Assembly: GCA_963827565.1 (NCBI GenBank)
Contig: CAWHBG010000001.1
Span: 448,682-512,681, forward strand
Length of the DNA: 64,000 nucleotides
Direction: 5' to 3'
From: Candidatus Aminicenantes bacterium
GTDB taxonomy: Bacteria; Acidobacteriota; Aminicenantia; UBA2199
Both the position numbers and the translations under genes were made by a program. The notes under the pieces were generated by a model, which did not search any database, had not been told where the DNA came from, and worked only from the letters and a program-made list of their open reading frames with translations. Numbering within the stretch: position 1 is the first letter of the stretch; every line of letters begins with the position of its first letter. This document shows, one piece after another, positions 1,576-54,963 of the stretch.

Positions 1576-1579
1576 TATT

Positions 1580-2134: not shown

Positions 2135-2183
2135 CCCCTTGAAAAACTTTTTTAATATCACCAAAAAGGTAATGTTAATATTT

Positions 2184-5778: not shown

Positions 5779-5924
5779 ATTTATTTCGAATATTATTAAA
5801 TTGTGAACATAATTAATTTATAATATACTGTTTTCTGGTGAATAATAGAAGTATTGCAGAACAGCTCTGTAAATAAACCTTCAATGATCTGAAGGATAAA
5901 ATTTTTCGAATGATCAGCACTTAA

Positions 5925-8774: not shown

Positions 8775-8779
8775 ACCGT

Positions 8780-11596: not shown

Positions 11597-11668
11597 TCTT
11601 TTTGCTGTCAATTCCTGATTGAATTAAGTTCCCTTTACAAAATCATATCTTTTTAATAGTATTTGGTT

Positions 11669-12433: not shown

Positions 12434-12454
12434 TCTATGTCTGAAGGTGACTTA

Positions 12455-36161: not shown

Positions 36162-36554
36162 ATGGAAATGAAAATTTACTTCCCCGGCGGGAAAAAGGTA
36201 TATGCTGATTATCACAATTTTACTCATGAGACCGATCAGCCTGTAATGGCGGGGGGAGAGGGAACCGCTCCGGCCCCATTCGACCTTTTTCTTGCATCTT
36301 TAGGTACATGTGCGGGTATTTATGTTCTCGGATTCTGCCAGCAGAGAGGAATAGACTCTGAGGGTATCGAAATAATCCAGAGAATGAATTTTGATCCATT
36401 AACAAGGCTTATCAGTAAAATAGACCTTGAGATAAAATTACCCGAATCGTTCCCTGAAAAATATAAAAATGCAGTAATTCAATCTGCCAATCTATGTGCA
36501 GTGAAAAAACATCTGGAGAATCCGCCGGAATTTAATGTTTTTACAACTTCTTAG
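36162..36554 (+). CDS. OsmC/Ohr-family protein
   Basis: 130 aa. It has GTAPAPFDLFLASLGTCAGIYV and LCAVKKHL (the two conserved Cys regions). Confidence 0.75.
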   Translation: MEMKIYFPGGKKVYADYHNFTHETDQPVMAGGEGTAPAPFDLFLASLGTCAGIYVLGFCQQRGIDSEGIEIIQRMNFDPLTRLISKIDLEIKLPESFPEKYKNAVIQSANLCAVKKHLENPPEFNVFTTS

Positions 36555-37551
36555 TATGAAGTTCCCAGGTCTCTTCATCCTCGTTCTCAATTAGTATATA
36601 GAACGTGGATTTGTAAATATCATATTCAGGCATATAATCCATTCCATGCAGTTCAGGATAGGGGACATATACCCTTTTTAGTTCCTTACCTTTCAGGTCA
36701 AGAATAATACATTCTGTCTCTGATCCTTTTTTCTTAAATGTAATGACATGAATCCGGTCATTGGTAACTCTCAAGTCCTGAATGGCAGGATAGTGCTGTT
36801 TAAATTTGATCCGCTGTTTGAAGAATTCAAAAAATTGTTTAAAGTTGGGATCGGTTTTGAAACTTTTTATCGTTTTATCTTTATAGTCCTGGGTAACCTT
36901 GATCTTTTCAAAATCCTTCTTGATCGTGTACAATTTTTCACCGCTGATTGAGAGTACATCAATAACAAATCCGTCCTTTCCCCGGACAAGAAATAATTTA
37001 TCTCCATAAGGCTCATAAGAGAATTGGTTGATCGGGTAGCTGAATGAAGCATTGGGACCGATGCTCATATCTGATTTATATAATTCTTTGAGCTTTTCCA
37101 TTTTTGAATTGTGCAGGTTGATGGTCAGAACGGTCTGCTTATCGTCATTAACAGCTGACCCGGTGGCAACAAATACTTCCTTAAATGGTCTGAATACGGA
37201 GAACGGTGGAACCCTGATCTCTTTTATAAATTCCCCTCTGGGGGTGAAATAGGAAACCTTCGAATCGCTGCTGACAAAGATATTCCCTTCGTAAAAGTAT
37301 GCGATCATCGGCGGGCCGAAGGGAGATATCTTGAATTCCCTGGGCCCTTCTCCAGGCTTGCCGAACTTTTTAATGAAAGAAAAATCCTTTGTGGAATAAA
37401 TAAATATAGTAGACCCTTCTGTTATCAGTAAATAATCTCCACTGACTGCCATCATCTGGGGTTTTGACACTTCCTCGAAAGCGGCAGCCACTTTTCCGTA
37501 AGAATAAAGTGAAATTAAGATTATTAAGATTAATAATATTATTTTTTTCAT
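36541..37551 (-). CDS. secreted 6-bladed beta-propeller-type protein (paralog A)
   Basis: 336 aa with a signal peptide. It shows repeated beta-rich blocks and a GKPGEGPREF motif. It resembles 60808..61827 end to end (C-termini ENEDEETWELH versus ENDDDEDWDLV). The family call is tentative. Confidence 0.5.
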   Translation of the reverse strand: MKKIILLILIILISLYSYGKVAAAFEEVSKPQMMAVSGDYLLITEGSTIFIYSTKDFSFIKKFGKPGEGPREFKISPFGPPMIAYFYEGNIFVSSDSKVSYFTPRGEFIKEIRVPPFSVFRPFKEVFVATGSAVNDDKQTVLTINLHNSKMEKLKELYKSDMSIGPNASFSYPINQFSYEPYGDKLFLVRGKDGFVIDVLSISGEKLYTIKKDFEKIKVTQDYKDKTIKSFKTDPNFKQFFEFFKQRIKFKQHYPAIQDLRVTNDRIHVITFKKKGSETECIILDLKGKELKRVYVPYPELHGMDYMPEYDIYKSTFYILIENEDEETWELHTKKL

Positions 37552-37686
37552 GATTTTGCTCCTTTTCGTTTATTATCTATTATATCAGCAGGAATTATTA
37601 AATCCTCTATTTTTCGGTGAACGGCCCATTTCCCTCGGTAAATGGATTATGTTTACCTTATTTACAGGGATTCATGCTCATATTCA

Positions 37687-38913
37687 TCAAGAATGGCTTT
37701 TTACATTAATATTTTTTATATTCAGATCCTTGAATATTATCTCCACTGCAATCTTCGACATGAAAGTGAATAGGAGAAATCCAAGTGAAAATATCATTAC
37801 CGCTGTTCTTATCTCTATCATTGACGGCCTGTAGATGAAAAGTTGACCCAGTGTATCAGGAGAGTATCCCGGAGTAATAAGTGCAATACCCTTCTCAATG
37901 TAAACACCGATATAGATCAGGACAGCTCCCAGATTCAATGTGATAATATTTTTTCTGGTTTTCGGGATCAGGAATAATAAAAATGCAATAATACTGAAAA
38001 TTATTGACATCCACGCATATAAAACAAGATCGTTATGCCCTTTAACTCCCAGGAATAGATACTTCAGATGAACAACGTGATGTGTATTGGAGTAGACTTC
38101 CTTGAATATTTCACTGAAGAAGAGAAAAAGGTAGAGGAACATCGAGTATGCCATTAATTCAGCGATCTTCTCAATTGCTTCCTGCTTGATATCAAATTTA
38201 GTTGTTTTTTTAAGGATCTGGAAAAGGATAAGGAGAACTGCAGGTCCGGAGCAGAAAGCCGATGCAATAAATTTCGGGGCAAGCAGTGCACTGTTCCAAT
38301 AGGGCCTTGCAGCCATTCCGTTGAAAAGAAAAGCGGTGACGGTGTGGATAGAGATCGCCATCGGGATCGAGAGGAGTATCAGTTTATTGAATATCTTTTT
38401 ATTGTACTCTTTCTTAATAAAATGCATGTAAAGGAGATAGGTTACAATGAAAAGGTTCAGGAAAAAATAGAGGTTCAATACGATCGAATCCCATGCGAGG
38501 AGTGAGTCCGGAAAATTTAAAATCCCGATAAACGGGATCATATGCCAGAGCCGGAAGGGGCCTCCCATATCCACGATCACAAAGCCCAGGGCCATTATAA
38601 CTGCACTGACCGCCAATATTTCTCCGAAAATTGTTATCTCCTTGATCGGTTTCCAATGGTAAACATAGGCCGGAATTACCAGTAAGATGGCGGCTGCTGC
38701 AACACCTACAAGAAAAGTGAAGTTCCCGATATAAAATCCCCATGAAATAGAGTCGTTCATATTTGTAACAGCCAGGCCGCTTTTTAATTGCTCAAAATAG
38801 CCCAGGGCTCCCCATATTATGAGAAGAAGCAGGGAGGATATCCATATATAATAATATTTATTCCCTTTCAGGATCACTTTAAAAGACTCTTTTACAAAAT
38901 TAATAAATTTCAC
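37687..38913 (-). CDS. NrfD/PsrC-like polytopic quinol-interacting membrane subunit
   Basis: 408 aa with ~10 TM helices. It lies immediately downstream (13 nt) of the Tat-exported 4Fe-4S protein, the standard NrfCD/PsrBC/ActBC context. Confidence 0.75.
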   Translation of the reverse strand: MKFINFVKESFKVILKGNKYYYIWISSLLLLIIWGALGYFEQLKSGLAVTNMNDSISWGFYIGNFTFLVGVAAAAILLVIPAYVYHWKPIKEITIFGEILAVSAVIMALGFVIVDMGGPFRLWHMIPFIGILNFPDSLLAWDSIVLNLYFFLNLFIVTYLLYMHFIKKEYNKKIFNKLILLSIPMAISIHTVTAFLFNGMAARPYWNSALLAPKFIASAFCSGPAVLLILFQILKKTTKFDIKQEAIEKIAELMAYSMFLYLFLFFSEIFKEVYSNTHHVVHLKYLFLGVKGHNDLVLYAWMSIIFSIIAFLLFLIPKTRKNIITLNLGAVLIYIGVYIEKGIALITPGYSPDTLGQLFIYRPSMIEIRTAVMIFSLGFLLFTFMSKIAVEIIFKDLNIKNINVKSHS

Positions 38914-38925
38914 GTTTCACCTCGA

Positions 38926-39828
38926 CTAATAAAAATAATAGAACTTGGGCTGAGTGTTGAGCTCTTCTTTAAGGATCAGTACCCTCTTATGTTTCAGGAT
39001 ATATCTGATCTCACTTTCGGGGTCGAGAAGGTTTCCGAATTTTCGAGCCCCCACCGGACATATCTCGACACAGGAAGGGTAGAGACCCTCCCTCACTCTC
39101 TGAACACAAAAAGTACATTTTTCAACAACCCCTTTCATTCGTGGCCTGTTACCGTAATAATGGGTAACAGGATTGATCCCATCTTTATCAATATCCGGCT
39201 CTGCCCAATTAAAATGCCTTGCTCCATAAGGACATGCAGCCATACAGATCCTGCAGCCTATACACCAATTATAATCAACAACTACTATACCGTCCTTTTC
39301 CTTCCAGGTGGCGCCGACAGGGCATACCTTTGTACAGGGAGGGTTCTCACATTGCTGGCATGCTACAGGGAAATAGAAATGATCATCATCAGGAACAAGC
39401 TCACGTTCATAATCTGCGCGTGAATGAAAAAGGTCCACACCTTTGTCCTTTGCCATTTCCAGGACTGTTATCCAGTGGATCTGCGGATCTTTAGACTGAT
39501 TATTCTCTTCAACGCATGCATATACGCACCTCCTGCACCCGATGCATCTGGATATATCAAGCCCGTATCCAAATAATGTTTCATCGATCGGATCCTTCCC
39601 GGATACACTGAATTTCTTACCGTATTTTTCTGTATATTTTTTTTCAAGTCTTTCAATTATTTTATTTTTATCATTTTCATCCAGAGTTCTGAAGTTTTTC
39701 TGAAAAAATTCTTCCCACGAGGTTTCAGATCCGCATGCAGCAAGAGTAGCAAAGGTGGAGGCCAATGCGGTCTTTTTCAAGAATGTTCTTCTCGACTCTT
39801 TTTTTTCAACAGATTTTTTCTTGCTCAT
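38926..39828 (-). CDS. Tat-exported 4x[4Fe-4S] ferredoxin-type subunit (NrfC/HybA/PsrB-like)
   Basis: It has a twin-arginine signal (SRRTFLKKTALASTFATLAA) and four Cys clusters: CIGCRRCVYAC, CQQCENPPC..VCP, CIGCRICMAACP and CTFCVQRV...CVEICP. Confidence 0.85.
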   Translation of the reverse strand: MSKKKSVEKKESRRTFLKKTALASTFATLAACGSETSWEEFFQKNFRTLDENDKNKIIERLEKKYTEKYGKKFSVSGKDPIDETLFGYGLDISRCIGCRRCVYACVEENNQSKDPQIHWITVLEMAKDKGVDLFHSRADYERELVPDDDHFYFPVACQQCENPPCTKVCPVGATWKEKDGIVVVDYNWCIGCRICMAACPYGARHFNWAEPDIDKDGINPVTHYYGNRPRMKGVVEKCTFCVQRVREGLYPSCVEICPVGARKFGNLLDPESEIRYILKHKRVLILKEELNTQPKFYYFY

Positions 39829-39830
39829 AC

Positions 39831-40358
39831 TTATCTCCTACCTTTCATCGGGTCTGCGGGTGCAGGTTCCGGTTTCATTTTTTTATACTTTGGTGAATGG
39901 GGATTATGACAATGAGCACACAGGAGGTACTTTTTCTTACCGTTCCAGAATCCGGTTCTCTTTCCGTGTGCACCATTTTTCCATTCTCTTAATTTTGGCC
40001 CGTGGCACTGGCCGCATAATTTATATGATTCTGTGAAATCTATCAATTTTCCATTTGCAAGATGGAGTTTATCCCGGTTCTTCATATCGTGACAGTCGAG
40101 GCACCATCTGTTCTTCTCATCATGCTTCAGGATTATGTCATCATGCATTTCCTCAAGTACCCTTCTCTCAGGATTCGGTTCCATATCACCATGACATTCT
40201 GTGCATGGGAATATATCCTCACTGAACGGGGGAGGAGGGACCTGAATCAGTTCGCTCTTCTCGGTACTCTCCTGGCCGTATACTCCTTGGGGAACGGTGA
40301 TCAGGATTAAAACTAAAATAATTAAAATTAAAAAATCATACTTTATGATTGTTCTCAT
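39831..40358 (-). CDS. periplasmic tetraheme c-type cytochrome (NrfB/Cbc-type partner)
   Basis: 175 aa with a signal peptide and four CXXCH motifs (CTECH, CLDCH, CGQCH, CAHCH). Its stop lies 2 nt before the FeS gene start. Confidence 0.85.
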   Translation of the reverse strand: MRTIIKYDFLILIILVLILITVPQGVYGQESTEKSELIQVPPPPFSEDIFPCTECHGDMEPNPERRVLEEMHDDIILKHDEKNRWCLDCHDMKNRDKLHLANGKLIDFTESYKLCGQCHGPKLREWKNGAHGKRTGFWNGKKKYLLCAHCHNPHSPKYKKMKPEPAPADPMKGRR

Positions 40359-40531
40359 TTTTGATCCTCTTATTAAATATATTAATAGTTCAATGATATA
40401 ATCATCTGAATATAATTTAAAGATATGAAATGAATTTTTTTATCATTCAGTTATTAATGTCAAGAATGGCCGAATAAAATTATAGTGAAGTATTACTGTA
40501 TATAAATGCTGAATAAATTTAATTTATACTA

Positions 40532-42346
40532 TCAGATCTTTTTCTGATTCAGGTAAAAATATGATCCTGTTATGATCATTAATTCGATAATTATATATAT
40601 TACAAGTGCAGTTGCAACATTGGCTGAGAATCCGTAATTATGGAGTCCTACTCCAAGCAGATTCACGCCGAACCATGCCAGAACGACTGTGATTATGCCA
40701 ACGATCGATCCTAGTGAAAAGCCCAGTTCTTTTATCATTTTACCCAGTTTTGCATGGAAAAGTATTGCAGACCACAATATTATCAGAAGTGCTCCATTCT
40801 CTTTTGGATCCCAGCCCCAGAACCTTCCCCATGACTGATCTGCCCAGATCCCACCGAGTACTGTACCAATGAAGGTAAATATCAGCCCGAATGCCTGAGT
40901 AGCATAGATTGATTGATATGTATCCCTGAGAATTTCTTTTTTCTTCCCTTTTTTAAATATAGATTGAATAAGATATAAGTGTCCCAGAACTCCGGAAATA
41001 ACTATACCTCCGTAACCGATCGTTATTGTAATAACATGTGTGGCAAGCCAGAAATTTGAATCCAGAACTGCAACAAGCATGCCCATTGTGTCTCCCTCAA
41101 GAGCATACCTTCCGGATATTATAAGCAGGACCAGTCCGGAGAGACTCCCCGTAAGGATGCCGATATTTTTCTTTTTGAACAACTCAAGAGCGAGTCCGAG
41201 AATTACTGTTATCCAGGCGGCAAATACGAATGTTTCGAAAAGATTTGTTACCGGTGGCCTGTTCCTTATTATCATTCTTGCGATCATTCCGTATGTATGC
41301 GGGAGCAGTCCGAGGATCAGGAGGAAATAGCTTGAGTAATAAAAAAGCCTTTTAAATTTTATATAGGAAAAAAGGAGCAGAAGCAGGGAAAATCCGTAGA
41401 AGAACTGAGATTTATAAAATGGATCGATCCTGTTGTACATGATCTCTATTTTTATCTTTTCAGGATCAGTCAGGTTTTTAGAAATGCCGTTTATAAATTT
41501 ATTAAATTCTATAACACTGGAATCAAATTCTGATTGATTACCATTCCTGAATGAAGAGACCATTTTATTTATAAGGGATATATGCGGTGCAGAGGATTCA
41601 TCAAACTTAAATGATCTGTTAACCGAGTCCCATGGGCTCTCCCAATTTTCTTCCCCTGAGCTCATGTCGGGGATGATATCAAGCTGCTGATCCTGATAAT
41701 AACCTGACCATTGATCCATTTTATGAGAAATATTCAGGAGTTTCTGTTCAGGTTCTGTCAATGATTCGACGTCTTTTTCCTTGATTGATTTAATCTCTTT
41801 GATCTTATGAAGAAGATCAAGGAAGGTTTTCCCTTCAAAATCCTGACTTGGAAAACAGAATTGAAAGGAGCCTGCAAGCTTATGATAAACATAGATTTTA
41901 TTGTATAGAACGATAAGCTCACTCTCAACAATACTTCTTTTGGATCCCTCGATCCTTGATGCTTTAATTGCCAATTCCCTCAGTTTTTGAACGTGGTCTG
42001 ATAATTGTCTGTAGCTGTATCTGCCTCTGCCCTTTCCTGCATCGGAACCAATGGCACTCAGGGCTTCAGGATTATTGATCAGAAAAACCTTGTCATCATA
42101 ACTTTTCTCAGGTGTAAATATCAGCCTTGATAACCATATTATTGCAGCTTGTTTTTCCAGTTTACTTTTTCCGGATAATTGTTTGAGTATATTCCGGGAA
42201 AATGTGTCGATCGGTTTTTTCCTGCCGTCTTCAAGGATAACAATTTTTTTGAACTCATCTAGATTTAAAGAGGAACCCTGAATCACTGCGGATGATATAA
42301 AGAATAAAGTAATCGTTAATATTAAAATTTTCAATTTGAATTTCAT
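40532..42346 (-). CDS. ccsA: System II cytochrome c biogenesis protein CcsA/ResC with long N-terminal periplasmic extension
   Basis: 604 aa. It has the Trp-rich heme-handling motif WGRFWGWDPKENGALLIILW with flanking His residues, about 8 C-terminal TM helices, and a ~300-aa secreted N-terminal region. Confidence 0.85.
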   Translation of the reverse strand: MKFKLKILILTITLFFISSAVIQGSSLNLDEFKKIVILEDGRKKPIDTFSRNILKQLSGKSKLEKQAAIIWLSRLIFTPEKSYDDKVFLINNPEALSAIGSDAGKGRGRYSYRQLSDHVQKLRELAIKASRIEGSKRSIVESELIVLYNKIYVYHKLAGSFQFCFPSQDFEGKTFLDLLHKIKEIKSIKEKDVESLTEPEQKLLNISHKMDQWSGYYQDQQLDIIPDMSSGEENWESPWDSVNRSFKFDESSAPHISLINKMVSSFRNGNQSEFDSSVIEFNKFINGISKNLTDPEKIKIEIMYNRIDPFYKSQFFYGFSLLLLLFSYIKFKRLFYYSSYFLLILGLLPHTYGMIARMIIRNRPPVTNLFETFVFAAWITVILGLALELFKKKNIGILTGSLSGLVLLIISGRYALEGDTMGMLVAVLDSNFWLATHVITITIGYGGIVISGVLGHLYLIQSIFKKGKKKEILRDTYQSIYATQAFGLIFTFIGTVLGGIWADQSWGRFWGWDPKENGALLIILWSAILFHAKLGKMIKELGFSLGSIVGIITVVLAWFGVNLLGVGLHNYGFSANVATALVIYIIIELMIITGSYFYLNQKKI

Positions 42347-42347
42347 A

Positions 42348-43484
42348 TTAGTTCCCTTTTTTTATCTCTGAGTTTTCTTTTCTCTTTCTGAACAACATTA
42401 ATATGAAATGGATCAATAAACCAAGAAAAACAACAATACTTGAAATATAAGGCAATAGCCTTCCCGAATTTTTCACAACTGCAAAAACAGAATATTCAAC
42501 TCCGGCAGGAGTGATATGATATCGGGATTGAAAGAATGTGTATTCTTTATATCTGAGAGGTTTGTTCATTGAAATTACAAGTTCTCTTTTAAGGTCTTCA
42601 TGCTTTATTTCGACTGTACTTTCATAACTTTTTACGATCTGTGAACCCGGATATTTTTTGATCCTAAAGTCTAAAAGCCCAACCTCGACCGGGAGTTTTT
42701 TTCTTAACTTCCTCAAAGAGAAATGATAATCACTTCCCAAAATCATAACATGAGTGGGTAATGTCTCTCCACCGTAAAGAATAATGTCCTTATTAATATC
42801 TTCAGAATATAGCATGATCCCGGGAACATTTTCTTCCGGTTCCGCCTCAGGCTGTCTCTCATCAATTGAGACGATCCCTGATGCATTCAGAACATTCTGT
42901 TTTGATGAACCCTCTTTATTTCTGAAAGCTGAAGCGTTCCGGAAAGATTTTTTAACATTAATCTTAATCGGAAAATCCGGAAATGAGATTGATTTATCCG
43001 GTTCTATATCTTTCAGATCAATGACAGAATAGTGCCTTACACCATCCTTGTCATTCCACACTGAGAGTTCCCATGCATGATAAGAATTTGACCACGAACT
43101 TTTTTCTCCCTCTTTCAGCATGAGGACGCTCTCTTCTGAAAAGAGGAAAGTAAAAAATCCCCCTATAAGAAGTATCAATATACCGATATGGGTAAGAATA
43201 TTACCTATGTTCTTAAATCTGAATCCGATCCTGAAGATCATGGAACTGATCAGGTTTAAAAACAGAACGGACATTGTAAGAGCCCCTCCAGGGATGGGAA
43301 TGAATCCCAAAGCAAGAAAAAACCATGAAGTGAAGAATTTTGCTTTTGCAGCATACAGGCCGTTATCGGTCTGATAAATCGTTCCCCATATAGTAAGAAC
43401 AGTTAGAACTATCAAACATATTACTGTCAATTTCAGCGAATAGCTGAATTTAATAAAGTTGTTTTTTTTTAGTTTGTTTAGCAT
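42348..43484 (-). CDS. ccsB: System II cytochrome c biogenesis protein ResB/CcsB
   Basis: 378 aa with the ResB-like topology and N-terminal pattern (SLKLTVICLIVLTVLTIWGTIYQ, NILTHIGILILLIGG, a large loop, then a C-terminal TM helix). It abuts ccsA. Confidence 0.7.
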   Translation of the reverse strand: MLNKLKKNNFIKFSYSLKLTVICLIVLTVLTIWGTIYQTDNGLYAAKAKFFTSWFFLALGFIPIPGGALTMSVLFLNLISSMIFRIGFRFKNIGNILTHIGILILLIGGFFTFLFSEESVLMLKEGEKSSWSNSYHAWELSVWNDKDGVRHYSVIDLKDIEPDKSISFPDFPIKINVKKSFRNASAFRNKEGSSKQNVLNASGIVSIDERQPEAEPEENVPGIMLYSEDINKDIILYGGETLPTHVMILGSDYHFSLRKLRKKLPVEVGLLDFRIKKYPGSQIVKSYESTVEIKHEDLKRELVISMNKPLRYKEYTFFQSRYHITPAGVEYSVFAVVKNSGRLLPYISSIVVFLGLLIHFILMLFRKRKENSEIKKGN

Positions 43485-44098
43485 TATTCTCCAGATTCGA
43501 TTGACTCTGATAATTTTAGTATCTTATCCCTATTATTCCTCAGAATTTCAGGATCTCCGGACATCTTAATGAAAAGTGTTTTTCCGGGGAAAGTGATCAT
43601 AGAAACAATTATAGAGAGATCAGACTCTTTACCGGTTATTTGTGTAAAATCAATAAAAATGCCTTCGTTATTACTTCTTGTTTTGAATTTTTTCTGTTTT
43701 GAGATAAATTCATCAATTTCAGATTCTGAAGGTTCCTTGTCTGCTATACTGGCAGACCACATCTGAACATTTGCCTTCAATCCTCCGGCATCCCCAGATA
43801 GGGGGATGATTGTGCACACGGCTTCTTTTTCGCCTGATTTGATAGAATAGGTCGCCAATCTTAGCTTGGATTCGGTTTTGATGCTTATCCAGCCGTCCGG
43901 AGTATCCCATTTAAGGTTTGTTTTAGTTGCCCCGGGGACATTCATACCGTGAGCATGTGTTGTTATTTCTGGTATATCCTTCTCAGCTATCTCCTCTTTA
44001 AATGAACGTACCTCATTCTTTTTCCCGCAGGAGATTGAAAAAATCACAAATGTTAATACTAATATAAAAATAACCGGTAAAGAGTACTTTGATCTCAT
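43484..44098 (-). CDS. hypothetical lipoprotein inside the cytochrome maturation operon
   Basis: 204 aa with a lipobox (FSISCGKK). Its TAA overlaps the ccsB ATG (TAATG). I recognise no family and there is no CXXC thioredoxin motif. Confidence 0.45.
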   Translation of the reverse strand: MRSKYSLPVIFILVLTFVIFSISCGKKNEVRSFKEEIAEKDIPEITTHAHGMNVPGATKTNLKWDTPDGWISIKTESKLRLATYSIKSGEKEAVCTIIPLSGDAGGLKANVQMWSASIADKEPSESEIDEFISKQKKFKTRSNNEGIFIDFTQITGKESDLSIIVSMITFPGKTLFIKMSGDPEILRNNRDKILKLSESIESGE

Positions 44099-44111
44099 TT
44101 AATTGCCTTTT

Positions 44112-44597
44112 TTACTTTCTGTAATTATGGTCTATCTTTTTGAAATACTCATCCTTTTTAAAAGGTTTTGCGGTATCACTTTTTTTCGGATCATGACAAG
44201 TAACACAAACCGCTTCAGTCGGCTCAATAAGTCCGGCTGCCATGGCTTTGGCTTTATCTTTCATGATGCTCATTTTTTTGTAGTCTGAACCCGGACCATG
44301 ACATGATTCACAGCCAACGCCCTCAAAGTTTACATTGTTAGGATCATCCAGCTTGTAACCGCCCTTGTTAAATGCTGTGGTATGACACTCAAGACACGCA
44401 GGATCTTTTTCCTTGCCGTCCTTCTTAAGACTTTCAAAAGCTTTTGAATGCTTTCTCTCCATCCATTTTTCAAACACATTACCTTTCTTTTCACCCTTGT
44501 GGCACATCTTACATTTCTTCGTACCGACATAATCAGCCGAAGTGACAAGAGAGAAAAGGAACAGAATCGCGATAAAAATCATTAACGTTTTTTTCAT
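44112..44597 (-). CDS. tetraheme cytochrome c (c554-like family)
   Basis: 161 aa with a signal peptide and four motifs (CKMCH, CLECH, CESCH, CVTCH). The layout YVGTKKCKMCH...W..KHSKAF...CLECH...GCESCHGPGS resembles the cytochrome c554 / c-prime family. Confidence 0.8.
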   Translation of the reverse strand: MKKTLMIFIAILFLFSLVTSADYVGTKKCKMCHKGEKKGNVFEKWMERKHSKAFESLKKDGKEKDPACLECHTTAFNKGGYKLDDPNNVNFEGVGCESCHGPGSDYKKMSIMKDKAKAMAAGLIEPTEAVCVTCHDPKKSDTAKPFKKDEYFKKIDHNYRK

Positions 44598-44630
44598 CTT
44601 ATCTCCTTTAAATTATTTAAACTTGATGAT

Positions 44631-44659
44631 TTTATAATTTATATCCTGAAAATTGTCAA
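44631..44659 (-). promoter_or_regulatory. candidate sigma-70 promoter of the c554-like/lipoprotein/ccsBA operon
   Basis: The minus strand reads TTGACA (44659-44654), a 17-nt spacer, then TATAAA (44636-44631). This is about 35 nt upstream of ATG 44597. Confidence 0.45.
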
Positions 44660-44737
44660 TAGCATATTTTTAACTTATTTTAATATCTGAACTTTTTTCC
44701 AATTCAGAAACCTTTCTCATATCTGCAAAAAGTGTTT

Positions 44738-46774
44738 TTAATGGAGCAGTTCAGATATCAGTTTTTCATACAATTCAGGATTATGTATTCCCTTGCTGCC
44801 GTCTTTTAAAAGTAGTTTATATAAATCATATACCCGGTTTCCGCTTTTGAGTTTCTCTTCTTCAATTTTTTTCTTCAGTTTATTCATCAACTCTGATGTT
44901 GAGTTAATCCACTCAACATGCATTTCTTCATAGTTCTCTTCATGACAATTGGAACATATTTCCTTTGTGGGCCTTACTATTTCATTACTCTCATTAACAT
45001 GACAATCGTTACATTCCACATCGTTTACCATAACATTCGGAATATTGAGAGTCAGGTGTTCCAGTTTCCCCTCATATATATTTTTCTGGATCTGATGACA
45101 ATCTGCGCATTCCTGTTTGCTCTCTTTTTTATGATGACAATCCATGCAATCATTTTTTCTGATTATCAATTGTCCATGGACAGCTTTATTCGAGTGACAA
45201 TTTCTGCAAGTTAATTTTTTTCCGTCAAGGTGTTTGTAATGAGGGAAATCCCATCCGAATATCTTCGCCGTTCTCAATTCGATCCCGGAATGGCAGTTAG
45301 AACATTCACCGGGAACAATATTTGTTTCCCGGTCAAATCTTGGAATGGATATCTGGTCAACTTTGTCCCCCAGACTTTTTCGAAGCATTTTAAATGACTG
45401 GTCAAGCAGCCTGTTTGCAAATGAAATATTGTGTATAGAATTTCCGAATTTAACCATTTTAAAATTAAACTCAGCATCTTCATATAACTTTTCAGAGCTT
45501 TTCCCTTTTTTTGTGTCTCTTATCGTTTTGATCTGCTTTTTAATAATTGGAAATATCTTTTCAAGCTGTGATATCTTTTTGTCAGTCTGGTTCTTCCAAT
45601 TCATTAGAATTTTATTGTATCCCTTCCCATGACATGGCTCACATGACTGGGAATTAGCTATCAGGGTGTCTCCCTTCTCCTCGAATGAAACAGAAAAATT
45701 ATGATGCTGATGACAGGCTTTACAATTGAGTCCCGATTCGAACATTGAACTGGGGTGATCCGGGACATTTTTCCCCCCTTTACCGGTAAACATCATCAAT
45801 TGAAGTTTATGCGGATCTGTGTGACATGAACTGCATTCGGGAATGATCTCTTCTGTCCTCGCTATCGATTTGTGCTGAATCTCAGTATGACATTGAATAC
45901 ATTCGATCTTATGATCAGTTATATGGTTCTTGTGCATGAGAACAGTATCATCGTACTGGTCTATTTTCTCCTGTTCTGCATGGCAATTATTACATCTGTT
46001 CCTCGGAACGGCTCCGTCACCGACGATCATTTCCCCATGACATTTATAACAACTTACTTTTCTTGCGAGAATGTCAGTATGATCATATTTTATCTCTTCA
46101 CTGTTATTCTCTCCTTTAACCGGAGGCGTATGGCATTTTGTACATTTTGAAATAACCTCCATTTCACTTTTAATACCTTTAAAATGGCAAAGGAAACATG
46201 ATGTTTCGGTTACTGACAGATGTGAACCCTGTACGATCTGTGAATGGCAGCTTGTACATCTTAATTGTTTTTCACGTCTCAGTCCCTCAAGATGAGGAGC
46301 ATGATCGAATATGATATTTTTTTTGAACTTTACTTTACCCTGGAGATTTCTTGTTTCATGACAGCCGCTTCTGAGGCAGCTTGCATCCGATATCTCTGCC
46401 CAGGGTTTGCTCTTTTTATAAACTCCGGTGAAATAGTTCACTACCATCGATGCTGCAGTTAATTTGCCTTTTAATTTATTTTTCAATCCGGGGGGAAAAT
46501 GGCAGTCTGTGCAAGTAACATCTTTATGAGAAGAATTAGCCCAGCTTTCATAATAGGGCTGCATGAAATGGCATGTAGAACAGAAACCCGGCCGGGATGT
46601 AATTTCCAGTGAAATTGATCCGAGAATGAGAAAGATTGCAGTGGTAACTGTTATGGCAACTATCAGCCGCTTCCAACCCGGTCCCCAGACGAGTTTATGA
46701 AGTGAAACAATGTTTCTCCTGATCAGCCGGAATATTTTAGCAATGCCTTTAAATGGTTTCAATAAGTTTTTCAT
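44738..46774 (-). CDS. NapC/NirT-type membrane-anchored multiheme cytochrome c (17 CXXCH + 1 CX4CH)
   Basis: ATG 46774 (AGAGGG RBS) is preferred over the TTG at 46795. An N-terminal TM helix is followed by the NapC/NirT signature FCSTCHFMQPYYESWANSSHKDVTCTDCHFPPG. I counted 17 CXXCH motifs plus CLRSGCH. Two NrfA/ONR-like helical segments are present (NSIHNISFANRLL, SKGIHNPELYEKLI). Confidence 0.85.
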   Translation of the reverse strand: MKNLLKPFKGIAKIFRLIRRNIVSLHKLVWGPGWKRLIVAITVTTAIFLILGSISLEITSRPGFCSTCHFMQPYYESWANSSHKDVTCTDCHFPPGLKNKLKGKLTAASMVVNYFTGVYKKSKPWAEISDASCLRSGCHETRNLQGKVKFKKNIIFDHAPHLEGLRREKQLRCTSCHSQIVQGSHLSVTETSCFLCHFKGIKSEMEVISKCTKCHTPPVKGENNSEEIKYDHTDILARKVSCYKCHGEMIVGDGAVPRNRCNNCHAEQEKIDQYDDTVLMHKNHITDHKIECIQCHTEIQHKSIARTEEIIPECSSCHTDPHKLQLMMFTGKGGKNVPDHPSSMFESGLNCKACHQHHNFSVSFEEKGDTLIANSQSCEPCHGKGYNKILMNWKNQTDKKISQLEKIFPIIKKQIKTIRDTKKGKSSEKLYEDAEFNFKMVKFGNSIHNISFANRLLDQSFKMLRKSLGDKVDQISIPRFDRETNIVPGECSNCHSGIELRTAKIFGWDFPHYKHLDGKKLTCRNCHSNKAVHGQLIIRKNDCMDCHHKKESKQECADCHQIQKNIYEGKLEHLTLNIPNVMVNDVECNDCHVNESNEIVRPTKEICSNCHEENYEEMHVEWINSTSELMNKLKKKIEEEKLKSGNRVYDLYKLLLKDGSKGIHNPELYEKLISELLH

Positions 46775-47063
46775 GTTGCCCTCTTTTTTGATCAAAAATG
46801 TTTATTTCTTTTGATTATAGGAATAGAAAAAAAAAAGTAAAATTAAATAAGACCGAAAGGGTTAAATAAAAACATTTATTTTTTATTGAAATGTGACTTT
46901 TAATATGTTAAATTTTTTTTAAACAATTTAAATCATTGCAATTTGAAAATGATTATATAAATTGTTTGTGTCAATTCCTTGAGCGAAGGGATGTTTAATG
47001 ATTAATTCAGGTTAGTTTAAATTAAAGATTTAAATATAATTCAGGTTAAAACCTGAAAGATTA

Positions 47064-49265
47064 TTGAAGGAGTTGGCATTGATTAAAAAAGCAAACTTAA
47101 TTTTATTATCATTTTTTCTTCTATTAATCCCACTTTGTTTGATCTCTGCGGATAACAATGAATGCATGGAATGCCATTCGGATGAAAGCCTCACTACAAT
47201 GAGGGGTGGAAGAGTTATTAAATTGTTTGTTGATATAAAAGTTCATAATAAATCAATTCATAAAGATCAGGAATGTGTCAATTGCCATGAAGAAGCGGAT
47301 GTTGAAGAATTCCCTCACGAAGAGAGGCTTACACCTGTTAACTGCGGAAATTGTCATGACAAACCCCAGGAAGAGTTTGATCGGGGTATTCACGGGAAAT
47401 TTCTGAAGACAAATCATTTGTATGCGCCAACATGTACTGAATGTCACGGAAAACATAATGTTGCGAGTGTCACTGATCCTGAATCGCCATCGTTTAGAAT
47501 GAATGTCCCTTATCTCTGTGGCAAATGTCACAGGGAGGGAGCTCCTGTTGCCAGGATCTATAAAATAAATGAAAGGAACATTATAGAAAATTACAGCCAG
47601 AGTATTCATGGGGAAGGATTATTCAAGAAGGGATTGTCAGTGTCAGCGACATGTGTTGATTGCCATAGCAGCCATAAAGTTCTTCCCCATACCGATCGCG
47701 AATCATCAATTCATCCGAATAACATTGCTTCAACTTGTATGCAGTGTCATACCAGGATAGAAGATGTTCATAAACAGGTTATCGAGAACAAAAAATGGGA
47801 GAAGAGCAAGGGGGCTATTCCTGCCTGTACTGACTGTCATCTTCCTCACAAAGTAAGAAAAGAATCAATTGTACTCCGGGTTTCTGATAAGGCATGTCTG
47901 AAATGTCATGAAGATGAAAATCTAAGTATGATGAAGGATGGCGAAAAGGTGTCACTCCATATAAATAAAGAAGACATTAAATCTTCGGTTCACATGGAAG
48001 TGACATGTGTAAAATGCCATTCTGATGTAAATCCGATGCTGAATAGGCCCTGTCAGACCGCTAATGAAGTTGACTGTACCAGCTGTCATATCAGTACAGG
48101 CGAAGAGTATAACAATTCCGGCCATGGAATGGCAAAAAAAAACATGGCGGAAGATGCACCGGATTGCGTAACCTGTCATGGCACCCACACGATCCAATCC
48201 CATCGTGATGATTCATCTCCTATCTATAAAACAAATATCCCTTCACTCTGTGGTGATTGTCATAAAAAGGACTCTAAAGTTAAACGGGTACATGAGTTAT
48301 CTCAAAAGGAAGTTATAAATAATTATTCACATAGTATACATGGGCAGAAGCTGACCGGGAAGGGATTTCTGGTCAGTGCATCCTGCACGGATTGTCACAA
48401 TAAACATTATATCCTCAGCAGCAAAGATGAGAAATCTTCTACTAACATCAAAAATGTTCAGGCTACATGTTCAACCTGCCATAGAGGCATATACAACGAT
48501 TACATAAAAAGTATCCATTTTACTTCCGAGCAATACAGGAAAGAGGACAGGCCAACCTGTATCACTTGTCATTCCGCACATACGATAAAGGATATTACCA
48601 AGGATCAGTTCATGACGGAGGTGACCGACCATTGCGGAGAATGTCACAAAAAATTGTCTGAAACATATCTCGATACGGTTCACGGAAAAACCTATCAGCT
48701 TGGTTATTTAAAATCAGCAAAGTGTTCAGACTGTCACAATGCCCACCTGATCCTCCCTACCAATGATCCCGATTCAAGTGTCGGTATGAACAATATTGTG
48801 AATACCTGCCAGAAGTGTCATGAAGATGCAAATGAGAGGTTTACTGGATATCTGACACATGCAACCCATCATGACAGGAAAAAATTTCCGATCCTCTATT
48901 ACACATACTGGGCGATGACATTACTTCTTATAAGTGTTTTTACATTTTTCGGAATTCATACTTTATTGTGGTTCCCTAGATCATACAAGAATATGAAGTT
49001 CAGAAAGAAACAGGCTCACGGACATGATGAGGTTTATGTTCAGCGGTTTGAATTATCTCAACGGCTGACCCATTTGTTCGTCATCCTCAGTTTTCTTGCC
49101 CTTGCATTTACCGGCCTGATCCTGAAATTTTCCTTCATGCCATGGGCGGCATTTTTTGCGAGTATAATAGGGGGGGTCCATAACGCAGGTTTATACACAG
49201 GTTTGCGGCCACTTGTAACCTTCGGTTATTTTTTCTTCCACGTATTTCAATTTGATAAGCCTTAA
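47064..49265 (+). CDS. 19-heme cytochrome c fused to the first helices of a b-type cytochrome membrane domain
   Basis: 733 aa with a signal peptide. I counted 19 CXXCH motifs, then TM helices (YWAMTLLLISVFTFFGIHTLLWF; LTHLFVILSFLALAFTGLILKF). The start codon is uncertain: TTG 47064, or the TTG ~15 nt later placed after GAAGGAG. The ORF ends prematurely and continues in other frames; see 49377..49859. Confidence 0.85.
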   Translation: MKELALIKKANLILLSFFLLLIPLCLISADNNECMECHSDESLTTMRGGRVIKLFVDIKVHNKSIHKDQECVNCHEEADVEEFPHEERLTPVNCGNCHDKPQEEFDRGIHGKFLKTNHLYAPTCTECHGKHNVASVTDPESPSFRMNVPYLCGKCHREGAPVARIYKINERNIIENYSQSIHGEGLFKKGLSVSATCVDCHSSHKVLPHTDRESSIHPNNIASTCMQCHTRIEDVHKQVIENKKWEKSKGAIPACTDCHLPHKVRKESIVLRVSDKACLKCHEDENLSMMKDGEKVSLHINKEDIKSSVHMEVTCVKCHSDVNPMLNRPCQTANEVDCTSCHISTGEEYNNSGHGMAKKNMAEDAPDCVTCHGTHTIQSHRDDSSPIYKTNIPSLCGDCHKKDSKVKRVHELSQKEVINNYSHSIHGQKLTGKGFLVSASCTDCHNKHYILSSKDEKSSTNIKNVQATCSTCHRGIYNDYIKSIHFTSEQYRKEDRPTCITCHSAHTIKDITKDQFMTEVTDHCGECHKKLSETYLDTVHGKTYQLGYLKSAKCSDCHNAHLILPTNDPDSSVGMNNIVNTCQKCHEDANERFTGYLTHATHHDRKKFPILYYTYWAMTLLLISVFTFFGIHTLLWFPRSYKNMKFRKKQAHGHDEVYVQRFELSQRLTHLFVILSFLALAFTGLILKFSFMPWAAFFASIIGGVHNAGLYTGLRPLVTFGYFFFHVFQFDKP

Positions 49266-49376
49266 AATAAAAACGAAAACACCGGTCTTCAAATTCATTT
49301 TCAGTAAGAATGGAATGATGTTCAACATAAAAGGACCTGAAGGATTTCTGGGGATCACTGAAGTGGTTTCTAGGAC

Positions 49377-49859
49377 TTGGGAAAAGGTCCGGAGTACGGT
49401 AAATGGACATATTGGGAAAAATTTGATTACTTTGCAGTGTTCTGGGGTGTTGCTGTTATCGGTATATCAGGGCTTATCTTGTGGTTCCCGGAATTTTTCA
49501 CAAAGATCATTCCCGGATGGGCAATAAATGTTGCAATGATAATCCATTCTGATGAAGCACTTCTTGCGATAGGATTTATATTTACAATACATTTTTTCAA
49601 TACCCATCTGAGGCCGGAGTCCTTCCCGATGGATAAAGTCATATTTACCGGACTTGTTCCTCTTCAAGAATACAAGAATGACAGACCGGAAGAGTATAAG
49701 AGGCTGGTGGAATCAGGTGAACTTGAGAGTAAACTGGTGAAACATAATGCATTTAAGAAATATAATAGATTCGTTACCTTTATGGGAATGACTTTTCTTA
49801 TTATCGGACTGGCTTTAACAGCACTTATCATATATTCAATGCTTTTCGGATATAAATAG
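49377..49859 (+). CDS. C-terminal part of the b-type cytochrome domain (FdnI/HydC-like), detached from 47064..49265 by frameshifts
   Basis: It reads GKWTYWEKFDYFAVFWGVAVIGISGLILWFPEFF...IIHSDEALLAIGFIFTIHFFNTHLRPESFPMD. Between 49190 and 49385 the reading frame hops: FFFHV / ISLKIKTKT..FIFSKNGMMFNIK / DFWGSLKWFLGLGK / GPEYGKWTYWEKF. Confidence 0.65.
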   Translation: MGKGPEYGKWTYWEKFDYFAVFWGVAVIGISGLILWFPEFFTKIIPGWAINVAMIIHSDEALLAIGFIFTIHFFNTHLRPESFPMDKVIFTGLVPLQEYKNDRPEEYKRLVESGELESKLVKHNAFKKYNRFVTFMGMTFLIIGLALTALIIYSMLFGYK

Positions 49860-49947
49860 TCCGGTTAAAATTATGAAGTATTTTTAGGTTAAAATTGAAT
49901 AGAATTTTAAATTTTCCTGTGGGAATTAAATATGGATAAAAACGGAT

Positions 49948-50271
49948 TTATTCGTCTCTTAAAAATTCTGTTTTATTTTCAGAAAGTTTAAGGACAAATT
50001 TTGACATATTTTCAATAATCTTCAATAAACTGATATCTGCAAGTGAATAGAATGCAAAAACTCCGTCCTTTGTTTTATTAAGAACGCCCATTTTAAAAAG
50101 GGCATTTAGATGATTAGAGAGACTGCTTGTGGATAATTGTGTTTTTTCCTGAAGTTCTGATACATTCATCTTGCTTTTGCCGATGAGGTCAATTATCAGA
50201 AGTCTTGAAGGTTTTGTGATGACCTGACATACCATTGAATATTGTTCGTAGAATTTAATATTGCGTGCCAT
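49948..50271 (-). CDS. ArsR/SmtB-family transcriptional regulator
   Basis: 107 aa. The wHTH pattern is PSRLLIIDLIGKSKMNVSELQEKTQLSTSSLSNHLNALFKMGVL. Confidence 0.8.
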   Translation of the reverse strand: MARNIKFYEQYSMVCQVITKPSRLLIIDLIGKSKMNVSELQEKTQLSTSSLSNHLNALFKMGVLNKTKDGVFAFYSLADISLLKIIENMSKFVLKLSENKTEFLRDE

Positions 50272-50419
50272 TTAACGATATTTTAATAAAAAACATTTAA
50301 AAAGTCAAAACTATTGAACTCTAAAATTAAGAAATTATACGTATTAACAAATAATTGTTATTAAAGTTGAAATATTAATAGGTAATAAGTTAGATTATTG
50401 AGGAGTATTGGAGTGGGAC

Positions 50420-50890
50420 ATGAAAAAATTAATTGAGATTTATACTGATGGCGCATGTTCCGGGAATCAGTTCCGGAATAATACCGGCGGATGGGGAGCG
50501 ATATTGATATCGCCGGGGAAAAGAAAAAAGAGATATTCGGTGGAGAGAAAAGGATACGACAAACAACAGAATGGAATTGACCGCATGCATCATGGGCTCT
50601 GCGTGAATTGAAAAGAGATGATTCTGTTATCAAAATGTATTCCGATAGTGCTTATATTGTAAATTGCATCAATAATAAATGGTATGTCAAATGGGAAAAG
50701 AACGGTTGGAAAACAACTAAAAAAGAACCGGTGGAGAATAGAGATCTATGGGAAGAATTGCTGGCCTTTGGTAAAAAAGTACAATATTGAGTTTATCAAA
50801 GTTAAAGGACACTCCGGAATTGAATTAAACGAAAGGGCGGATGAACTTGCAAATAAGGGAATGGAGTTCAATTTAATAAATCGAAATTGA
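50420..50890 (+). pseudogene. rnhA: ribonuclease HI, multiply frameshifted
   Basis: Pieces appear in three frames: MKKLIEIYTDGACSGN..GGWGAIL / DTTNNRMELTACIMG / ALRELKRDDSVIKMYSDSAYIVNCINNKWYVKWEKNGWKTTKKEPVENRDLWEELL / YNIEFIKVKGHSGIELNERADELANKG. All RNase HI catalytic motifs (DGA, TNNRMEL, SDS, NERAD) are recognisable. Confidence 0.75.
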
Positions 50891-50939
50891 AAAATATTTC
50901 ACCTTGTAGTGTTATAAATCATGCTATAATATGAAATAC

Positions 50940-51013
<74 letters not shown>

Positions 51014-51034
51014 TTTCCTTTCCAGTGAAAATAA

Positions 51035-51891
51035 ATGTTCAGATCAATACTTTCATAAAAGAATTGATAGAATAATTAAAAAATCCGAAACGATAAATAT
51101 TGATGAAAATTCCCGTATTATTATATTAAGTGATATGTCATCGCGGGCATGGGGACAGATCTGATGATTTCTTTCATAATCAGAATGTATACATCAATGC
51201 TCTAAAGCATTATATAAAAAAAGGATATACTTATATTGAGCTTGGAGATGGGGATGAGTTGTGGGAGAATGCAAATTTCAGGCTTATAAGTGAACGGTAC
51301 AGGATCATCTATCAGATGTTCGATGAACTTCACAGCAAAAACAGGTTCCGGTTCATTTGGGGAAATCACAACAGAAGATGGAAAAATAAATTTCTCTTTA
51401 ACAAACAATTTGGAGGAGTAATAGATGAACAAAGCGGGCTTGAAGTTAAACTACTTGAAGGCCTGAAAGCTGAGGAAGCGATAGTTTTACGGTTCAATAA
51501 AGATAAATAAGAAAGAAATTCTCCTTAATTCATGGACATCAGGGGGAGATACTTAATGATACTCTGTGGTGGTTCGGCAGGTTTTTTGTAAGAGTGTTCT
51601 GGAAGTTTTATCCAGATGAGGTTTGGTGTAGCAGACCCGACAAGTCCTGCAAGAAATTTCAGAATCAGAAAAAAAATAGACCTGAGGTTCATAGATGTTG
51701 CTGAGAAACAGAAAAAGGGAGTTATTATCGGACATACTCATTTTCCGGTTTTCCCTGATCCCGGGGATGTCCCGTATTTTAATGACGGAAGCTGTGTACA
51801 TCCGAGATGTATTACAGGAATAGAGATAAAAAGCGGGAGTATTGAACTTGTTAAATGGTTTTATTACTCAGAATGGTTCAGGATATCTTAA
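51035..51891 (+). pseudogene. calcineurin-like metallophosphoesterase, multiply frameshifted
   Basis: Fragments: SRIIILSD / HRGHGDRSDDFFHNQ...YIELGDGDELWEN...FIWGNHN / LIHGHQG-like piece / VIIGHTHFPVF...PYFNDGSCVHPRCITGIEIKSGSIELVKW. The canonical D..H, GD, GNH, H and GHTH motifs are all present but spread across frames. The start is approximate. Confidence 0.55.
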
Positions 51892-52004
51892 ACTTAAGAC
51901 GGGAAATAATATCGGGCCCTTCAAAAATAGAGGAATTGTTAAAATTTTCAGATTGATTTTTTATAATTGTAGTTTAGCCTAATATTTTATGTTATAATTT
52001 TACC

Positions 52005-53333: not shown

Positions 53334-53387
53334 GAATTTGTCTGTTTCCCAAATTGAATTCCCGTTTGTATCTGATATAATTTTTTC

Positions 53388-54953: not shown

Positions 54954-54963
54954 GAATATTTGA

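Follow-up and report, generated by a model that had tools for sequence, protein, structure and literature searches.

What a bacterial cell does with a dense cluster of multihaem cytochromes, and where in its electron-transfer chains such a cluster stands, is the question raised by a haem island of about 12 kb in the genome of an uncultured Candidatus Aminicenantes bacterium (contig CAWHBG010000001.1), which combines three kinds of quinone-linked membrane module with genes for haem attachment. The island was analysed within a 64-kb stretch of this contig, here called the window, and positions are those of the window. NCBI assigns the cluster members nearest to the window proteins to Candidatus Aminicenantes. 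On a modest balance of probability, the island forms the part of a multihaem electron-transfer chain that lies at the cytoplasmic membrane, a hub of the Geobacter type leading from the quinone pool to the periplasm. Its components are as follows (aa, amino acids; ORF, open reading frame).

37687-38913, minus strand: NrfD-family integral membrane subunit, 408 aa, with about 9-10 hydrophobic helices, putatively quinone-interacting (PF03916, 121 bits).
38926-39828, minus strand: ferredoxin-like subunit exported by the twin-arginine translocation (Tat) route, 300 aa, with four [4Fe-4S] motifs (SRRTFLK; Fer4_11 and related domains).
39831-40358, minus strand: tetrahaem cytochrome c (c175), 175 aa, anchored or secreted, four CxxCH; first gene of the cytochrome/FeS/NrfD trio.
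40532-42346, minus strand: CcsA-type haem lyase subunit, 604 aa, with a long N-terminal extension (PF01578, 89.8 bits).
42348-43484, minus strand: ResB/CcsB-type subunit, 378 aa (PF05140, 57 bits).
43484-44098, minus strand: hyp204, a secreted protein or lipoprotein of 204 aa, between the c554-like gene and resB.
44112-44597, minus strand: c554-like tetrahaem cytochrome (c161), 161 aa, periplasmic, four CxxCH (PF13435, 55.3 bits).
44738-46795, minus strand: NrfH/NapC-anchored cytochrome c (c685), 685 aa, 18 haem sites (PF03264, 46.2 bits).
47064-49859, plus strand: 19-haem cytochrome c joined to an FdnI-like dihaem cytochrome b (c-b), split into ORFs of 733 and 160 aa.

The minus-strand set comprises nine genes between 37687 and 46795, as read from the ORF listing, motif counts and hidden Markov model (HMM) scans, and the c-b gene runs divergently from it, starting at 47064. 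A preliminary description of this DNA had named four components here (the trio, a NapC/NirT-anchored cytochrome with 18 haem sites, a 19-haem c-b fusion, and a c554-like tetrahaem transcribed with System II genes), all of which were found in place, and the three architectures that it recognized among them (a CbcL-type c+b fusion, a NapC/NirT-anchored many-haem cytochrome and a Cbc-type cytochrome/FeS/NrfD module) are borne out by their domains. Its count of 45 haem motifs also stands, as 44 canonical CxxCH and one CX4CH, but these are spread over four proteins and not six. A chance origin of the motifs can be dismissed because a six-frame scan of the window finds open frames with multiple CxxCH only in the island and at the left edge. 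The range had been drawn from 36541, which is too wide: the gene bp336 (36541-37551) has no detectable link to the system and co-occurs with it in none of 160 related loci (80 centred on the c-b gene and 80 metagenome loci centred on c685), and a 217-aa membrane protein, which likewise does not co-occur in these loci, was excluded as well. Promoter and terminator scans (73 sites against 48 expected) do not make operon boundaries clear, the island contains no sigma-54 -24/-12 motif, and Rfam and tRNA scans gave a tRNA-Ala (50940-51013) as their sole match.

All 19 CxxCH motifs of the c-b protein, encoded by the window ORF 47064-49265, are invariant in an alignment of 26 homologues (A1), which also contains 21 invariant His outside the motifs for these 19 haemes. 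Intact relatives consist of one polypeptide of about 925 aa, and the b domain was assigned on the closest of them (P0001), where it scores 35.6 bits on TIGR01583 (formate dehydrogenase gamma, FdnI) and its model, with six long helices, matches 1kqf_C in Foldseek (E = 1.3e-4, TM-score 0.76); invariant His lie at its positions 627, 665, 707, 721, 822, 837, and 842. The model was obtained with AlphaFold2 on a 925-aa relative from a 26-sequence alignment, and the b domain alone is usable. Within the c domain, an eight-haem unit is tandemly duplicated (residues 64-283 against 308-529, 35% identity, E = 6e-47), a repeat that was missed by BLASTP self-comparison and seen when the two halves were compared directly. 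CbcL of Geobacter sulfurreducens and the wider CbcL/MtrH/MtoC set share with the window protein a periplasmic multihaem c domain and a HydC/FdnI-like dihaem b domain of six helices; CbcL has 9 haemes, whereas the window protein has 19, the surplus coming from the duplicated eight-haem unit, and its gene is frameshifted. This tandem duplication would explain the growth of a CbcL-like protein from about 9-11 to 19 haemes.

The 19-haem fusion is not an unknown one. Cabys_319 of Caldithrix abyssi (920 aa) was listed in 2018 as a CbcL/MtrH/MtoC homologue with six transmembrane segments (Zhong & Shi 2018, Suppl. Table S2; PMC6295460), and its haem positions (23, 60, 83 ... 570) equal those of the window protein (34, 71, 94 ... 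582) at an offset of 11-12 residues, so that, judged by motif spacing, the c-b protein is a catalogued member of that known family. The family is large (5131 matches at E <= 1e-10, with 55-60% identity across phyla) and relatives occur in at least 598 GTDB species genomes; carriers among the matches listed belong to Calditrichota, Latescibacterota, Zixibacteria RBG-1, Acidobacteriota, Eisenbacteria, Gemmatimonadota, and Bacteroidota, and cultured carriers include Maribellus, Draconibacterium, and Caldithrix abyssi.

The neighbouring c685 is the NapC/NirT-anchored cytochrome with 18 haem sites that had been announced, comprising 17 CxxCH and a CX4CH (CLRSGCH) at residue 140, all of them invariant in 26 homologues (alignment A2). 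The source record begins the protein at the ATG at 46774, giving 678 aa in place of the 685 aa of the listed ORF. A single transmembrane helix (residues 44-62) lies at the start of the NapC/NirT domain (PF03264, residues 44-188, 46.2 bits against a cut-off of 24.1), the first haem motif, C72STCHFM78, is of the NrfH type CxxCHxM with C72, C75, H76, and M78 invariant, and residues 38-117 match the NrfH structure 2j7a_C (E = 3.6e-8). The last haemes and a helical C-terminus bearing 'DGSxGxHN' match OcwA (6i5b_A) at E = 6.8e-17 when the A2 profile is used, the same profile matches the 11-haem 6qvm_A (E = 6.5e-13), and a second, weaker match in the middle of the protein is consistent with a modest internal repeat; searches of PDB sequences with single proteins gave only short NrfH/NrfB matches, so that a profile was needed to reveal OcwA. 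By these matches, c685 is an NrfH-like head followed by OcwA/NrfA-family-like modules. Its family (2627 matches) is found in Aminicenantes, Marinimicrobia, Fidelibacterota, and Gemmatimonadota, and no description of such an NrfH-plus-OcwA-like hybrid was found in the literature searched.

Comparison with better known proteins sets c685 apart from each of them. With ImcH and NrfH/CymA it shares a NapC/NirT-type anchored head containing an atypical haem motif, with NrfH the CxxCHxM first haem, and with ImcH a place beside a CbcL-like gene, as is seen for ImcH-like genes in Bacteroidota. However, it has one transmembrane helix where ImcH has three, its CX4CH lies at the third site whereas the CX3CH of ImcH lies at the first, and its 685 aa with 18 sites contrast with about 490 aa and 7 sites (6-7 CxxCH) in ImcH; a phmmer comparison at E < 1e-8 shows no link between it and the ImcH-like proteins of Bacteroidota. 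An identity as ImcH was rejected on this pattern (three helices, CX3CH first, about 490 aa), and an identity as a small tetra- or pentahaem NrfH/NapC equivalog was rejected on the size of c685, on its 18 sites and on its scores below the cut-offs of TIGR03153 (55.6 against 134.2 bits) and TIGR02161 (28.3 against 310.6 bits). The cell-surface iron reductase OcwA of Thermincola potens (PDB 6I5B) belongs to the NrfA/c554/MccA structural group (PMC6703420); c685 matches it in the C-terminal helical region and last haemes, over only about 150-290 of its 685 residues, but OcwA is a terminal extracellular reductase, whereas c685 is anchored in the cytoplasmic membrane by its NrfH-like head and has twice as many haemes.

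The third architecture is encoded by the trio, whose genes are spaced by 2 and 12 nucleotides (nt) in an operon-like manner. The FeS protein carries the twin-arginine motif SRRTFLK and holds 16 of its 17 Cys in four groups, and the tetrahaem protein has an N-terminal hydrophobic segment at residues 4-22. In the Geobacter Cbc4 complex, CbcS is a tetrahaem cytochrome, CbcT holds four clusters and CbcU is the membrane subunit, with the role of the complex unassigned (bioRxiv 10.1101/2025.04.14.648717); the trio has an equal layout (anchored tetrahaem, 4x[4Fe-4S] protein, membrane subunit) and is likened to Cbc4 by that layout, whereas by HMM its nearest named family is DsrO/DsrP. Homologues of the NrfD protein at about 70% identity are very numerous, and the trio is kept as a unit in three of the related loci (L041, L084, and L088). 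At L041 (positions 4072-13253), from a Lentimicrobiaceae metagenome-assembled genome, the trio orthologues lie beside a multihaem cytochrome and a haem-binding EB_dh protein, both of which carry C-terminal sorting domains of the type IX secretion system (T9SS), which points to secreted redox proteins.

Between the trio and c685 lies a tight group of four genes (c554-like, hyp204, ResB, CcsA) spaced by 13, -1, and 1 nt. The c554-like protein far exceeds the cut-off of PF13435 (20.8 bits) and is probably a soluble carrier; as an orthologue of Nitrosomonas c554 it was rejected (63 bits on NF043010 against a cut-off of 400). The presence of System II genes among the modules is confirmed by PF05140, PF01578 and the WWD motif (WGRFWGWDPKE) in the CcsA translation, with CcsA scoring 136.5 bits on TIGR03144, below the cut-off of 187.6. 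Their description as dedicated machinery goes further than the data: a ccsA-like gene adjoins the c685 orthologue in 37 of the 80 c685 loci (verified as ResB plus CcsA at L121), which is only suggestive of a dedicated extra copy, and the System II genes here are indistinguishable from a sole copy in the genome. No Pfam or NCBIfam family matches hyp204, but homologues of it adjoin resB at L001 (2650-3261, 387 bits) and L086 (9629-10261, 126 bits), and it may be an accessory of cytochrome maturation.

The association of these parts is real, recurrent and not unique to this genome, and the co-occurrence for which the preliminary description had asked is seen across the related loci, in which members of several phyla repeatedly show the same parts grouped, in varying order. 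Around c685, c554-like genes are found in 34 of the 80 loci, c-b fusions (of 19 haemes or of shorter types of 657-831 aa) in roughly 28, and FeS/NrfD pairs in 12-18. Around c-b, the counts (each out of 80) are 22 for the c554-like tetrahaem, 21 for a 500-aa protein of the ImcH pattern, 20 for a DUF5777 beta-barrel, 18 each for a small cytochrome b and a 7-haem cytochrome, and 10 for a fused CcsBA. Gene order at L001 (GCA_942492175.1) is as in the window; L086 has six of the window genes in another order (c685, c161, ccsA, resB, hyp204, c-b), c685 directly precedes the c175-FeS-NrfD trio at L088, and L106 encodes all three architectures in one operon (c554-like, c-b, c685, multihaem cytochrome, FeS, NrfD, c-b). 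The searched literature contained no description of this gene association as a unit.

Two of these loci hold further genes among the shared ones. At L001, from the closest relative, a dCache histidine kinase and a sigma-54 response regulator (3887-7541) stand between the c685 and c554-like genes, where the window has 140 nt. The junction of the window is confirmed independently by a Logan contig from run ERR11523668, a run that carries identical c685 and c161. In Geobacter the sigma-54 regulator BccR lies next to cbcBA, an arrangement that this two-component insert recalls. The L001 regulator is not orthologous to a broken sigma-54 regulator at 32-34 kb in the window (27-32% identity). At L121 (6138-13125), ResB, CcsA and the c685 orthologue are followed by a 141-aa ORF, a bc1/b6-type cytochrome b (PF00033) and further multihaem cytochromes; by its domain, this cytochrome b, from another lineage, would add a fourth type to the quinone modules linked with the c685 family.

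In Bacteroidota, a conserved cluster is found in Maribellus sp. YY47 (L012, 5597-19965) and at about 20 other loci. Its order is a 6-haem cytochrome, a DUF5777 beta-barrel, a 7-haem cytochrome, a 'thiosulfate-reductase-like' cytochrome b and the 19-haem c-b, followed by a 500-aa protein of the ImcH pattern, a c554-like tetrahaem, a fused CcsBA and a T9SS-tailed protein. The 500-aa neighbours of c-b have three transmembrane helices, a CX3CH and six CxxCH, the pattern tabulated for ImcH (Zhong & Shi 2018, Table S3; PMC6295460), and the 7-haem cytochrome with the 'thiosulfate-reductase-like' cytochrome b has the layout of CbcBA, homologues of which had already been noted in Caldithrix and Prolixibacter relatives (Joshi et al.). 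CbcL-, ImcH- and CbcBA-like genes thus stand side by side, and their Geobacter namesakes are inner-membrane components genetically shown to serve extracellular respiration (bioRxiv 10.1101/2021.04.15.440034). With this Prolixibacteraceae type of cluster the window shares a 19-haem c-b beside a NapC/NirT-type cytochrome, a c554-like tetrahaem and System II genes. The Bacteroidota loci, unlike the window, have CbcBA-like genes, the DUF5777 beta-barrel and T9SS-tailed proteins, their NapC-type partner is the 500-aa ImcH-like protein, their CcsBA is one fused gene, and only L041 has the NrfD trio. No description of these clusters was found in the literature searched on DUF5777, Aminicenantes cytochromes or extracellular electron transfer in Bacteroidota.

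The domain make-up of the proteins, the invariance of their haem sites across phyla and their recurrent linkage are direct observations, and the mechanism proposed from them is drawn by analogy. Three modules in parallel would couple the (mena)quinone pool to the periplasm by electron exchange. In the CbcL-type module, an FdnI-like dihaem cytochrome b would bear the quinone site and pass electrons to 19 c-haemes in the same polypeptide; in the NrfH-type module, the single helix and the CxxCHxM first haem of c685 would form a quinol site continuous with 17 more haemes; and in the trio, a membrane subunit of the NrfD type, free of haem, would work with an anchored tetrahaem and a ferredoxin that holds four clusters in the periplasm, a layout found in Geobacter Cbc4 and in the DsrJOP half of the Dsr complex. 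The likely soluble carrier is the c554-like tetrahaem, and ResB and CcsA would attach the 45 haemes. Invariant His outside the haem motifs number roughly one per haem, as electron wires require (21 for 19 in c-b; for the 17 distal positions of c685, 15 that are invariant and 2 more that are nearly so). That all three modules touch the quinone pool, and which way electrons flow, we infer by analogy; the direction is unreadable from sequence, as the preliminary description had also held. In Fdn-N of E. coli the quinone site of FdnI lies towards the cytoplasmic face; therefore inward flow through an FdnI-like site would conserve energy and outward flow would be dissipative. The NrfH-type quinol site is periplasmic. 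At the far end of the chain, an extracellular or insoluble acceptor or donor is plausible because of the analogy with Geobacter CbcL, ImcH, and Cbc complexes, the homology with OcwA, and the barrel and T9SS-tailed cytochromes of the Bacteroidota clusters.

Several observations weigh against placing the island at the head of such a chain. The island holds neither an outer-membrane porin nor an extracellular cytochrome, because of which the extracellular end point remains inferential. A candidate for that part had been seen in three minus-strand genes at the left edge of the window (2-2164), namely a hexahaem cytochrome (1580-2164), a 458-aa beta-barrel-like protein without a Pfam match (265-1641) and a signal-peptide cytochrome cut off by the window edge, whose first part (2-277) has two CxxCH so far. 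Their layout is porin-cytochrome-like, but they lie 35 kb from the island and none of the 160 related loci contains homologues of them, so that they add nothing to the case for an extracellular system. The c-b family also occurs in Gemmatimonas, Solibacter, and Woeseiaceae, taxa not known for metal respiration, and the searched literature contained no experimental test of any member of the c-b or c685 families. The structure model of the c-b haem domain (predicted local distance difference test score, pLDDT, 52.6) is too poor to support claims about haem geometry, the assembly does not give c-b as a single open frame, and the relatives of OcwA include enzymes acting on nitrite, hydroxylamine, and sulfite.

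This last point leads to the alternative that survives best, unlikely as it is: c685 would itself be an enzyme, in which an NrfH-like quinol dehydrogenase is fused to NrfA/OcwA-type catalytic modules acting on a soluble periplasmic substrate (nitrite, hydroxylamine, or a sulfur oxyanion), supplied with electrons by the c554-like protein and the remaining modules. The profile matches to OcwA, to 6qvm_A and to the middle of the protein are what such a fusion would give, and the count of His for the distal haemes leaves room for one or two with open coordination. In ammonia oxidisers (Nitrosomonas), electrons take a route from hydroxylamine oxidoreductase through c554 to cM552, which such an enzyme would resemble with the route contained in a single membrane protein, and the pairing of c554 with cM552 is mirrored here by the adjacent c554-like cytochrome and the NapC/NirT head. 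OcwA turns over nitrite and hydroxylamine, but slowly, and nitrite very slowly, and is itself an extracellular iron reductase (PMC6703420). Moreover, c685 contains no CxxCK motif, no NCBIfam enzyme model reaches its cut-off on it, and the genes that accompany it in other genomes encode further quinone modules and haem wires, with no known catalytic subunit among them. PDB sequence and profile searches revealed no close homologue that is a characterised enzyme with a soluble substrate; such a homologue is what the preliminary description had said would tell against its reading.

A different doubt arises from the condition of the c-b gene and its surroundings, where the following features lie.

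49193-49388, plus strand: five single-base indels that break the c-b frame, from a three-way DNA alignment with L001 and L002.
49193-53529: stretch of indels that hits c-b, an RNase H gene, a gene for a 304-aa protein, a phosphodiesterase gene and the start of a GDSL lipase gene.
49948-50271, minus strand: ArsR-family regulator (PF01022), convergent with the c-b gene.

The claim of a c + b fusion therefore holds for the architecture, which is of CbcL type, and fails for an intact gene. The ORF with 19 CxxCH stops at 49265, the C-terminus of the b domain resumes at 49377-49859, and tblastn with P0001 shows the window drifting through three frames from the last haem to the C-terminal b domain. 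Relative to two intact relatives of 925 aa (L001 and L002), the window has a 1-nt deletion at 49193 and 1-nt insertions at 49209, 49244, 49328, and 49388, and the deposited source contig (751,559 bp) has the same split, with products of 728 and 160 aa. In all, 28 window-specific frameshifting indels fall in five consecutive genes between 49193 and 53529. Within this stretch, arsR and the tRNA-Ala are intact; the ArsR gene has the same position in L001, L002, and L003 and is a conserved neighbour in the closest relatives only.

Taken at face value, these lesions would mean that the system is decaying, with c-b and its four neighbours true pseudogenes and the island no longer working as a unit, and there is no independent intact copy of c-b from the same strain to set against them, since the members of its 90% cluster are at most 86% identical, the split products themselves excepted. 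Such decay is nonetheless rather improbable, and patchy consensus error in a long-contig assembly is the likely cause: it is favoured because the indels are nearly all single bases (21 of 29 are insertions), because the stretch is sharp-edged, with zero window-specific indels in 47064-49192 and 53530-55000 and none attributable to the window in 40836-44674, because residues in each shifted frame stay as conserved as in the intact neighbours, and because unrelated genes of the window, a sigma-54 regulator (32365-33830) and a C39-like peptidase (29722-30740), are broken alike.

The weakest alternative, that the trio is the DsrJOP part of a DsrMKJOP complex of dissimilatory sulfur metabolism, is highly improbable: the NrfD protein passes the cut-off of the NCBIfam DsrP equivalog (387.5 bits against 350) and its 81%-identical homologue P0270 is named 'DsrMKJOP subunit DsrP' by NCBI, but the FeS protein reaches 189.5 bits on DsrO, short of the cut-off of 200, and matches the C-terminal part of the profile only, the trio cytochrome has four CxxCH in place of the three of DsrJ and no DsrJ match, no DsrM- or DsrK-like gene is found among the ORFs of the window scanned against Pfam, and the trio stands alone among unrelated genes, with no DsrM/DsrK-like neighbour, at L084 and beside multihaem cytochromes at L041 and L088. 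Because of this non-DsrJ cytochrome, the lack of DsrM/K-like genes among the window ORFs scanned and the company that the trio keeps, the name 'DsrP' on the NrfD subunit is likely an annotation trap, a systematic mis-annotation.

Elsewhere in the window, other genes and regions have irregularities of their own. The broken sigma-54-dependent response regulator is split into three ORFs on the minus strand (33402-33830, 32796-33332, and 32365-32745), near which exact matches to the sigma-54 -24/-12 consensus (TGGCAY-N5-TTGCW) lie at 31773 and 32297 (minus strand), and the C39-like peptidase is split into two minus-strand ORFs (30360-30740 and 29722-30372). ORFs are sparse at 14-18 kb and 30-32 kb, which suggests further noisy assembly stretches. 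A DnaE-like ORF (3343-5778) has 811 aa only, with Pfam NTPase, finger, and HhH domains and without PHP or OB-fold, and may be a short paralogue or a product of sequence error. Two tandem genes for Ser/Thr protein kinases of about 940 aa each occupy 5925-11596.

If the island is the quinone-pool end of a chain to the periplasm, it bears on the exit of electrons from the quinone pool. Of all the steps in extracellular respiration, this is the one understood least well outside Geobacter and Shewanella. In Aminicenantes, Calditrichota, Latescibacterota, Eisenbacteria, and Bacteroidota alike, CbcL-like, NapC/NrfH-like, and NrfD-type modules are combined in recurrent gene sets with System II genes and a c554-like carrier, and in Bacteroidota, including the cultured genus Maribellus, counterparts of all three proven Geobacter entry points stand side by side. 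A bolder and doubtful extension is that c685 and c-b represent a widespread class of hard-wired, membrane-rooted haem chains that span the periplasm and are lengthened by duplication of modules, with CcsBA a lyase specialised for the invariant CX4CH. MtrA extends about 8 nm with 10 haemes; scaled from it, the c685 and c-b chains, if roughly linear, would reach about 15 nm, and electrons leaving the quinone pool would need no soluble shuttle over most of the distance to the outer membrane. For annotation, the locus exposes two traps, the 'DsrP' name given to an NrfD subunit and a c-b gene split by local indel noise. Caldithrix abyssi, Maribellus, and Draconibacterium are cultured carriers that permit tests of the roles proposed, and the 18-haem NrfH/OcwA-type hybrid is a candidate marker of such metabolism in sediment metagenomes.

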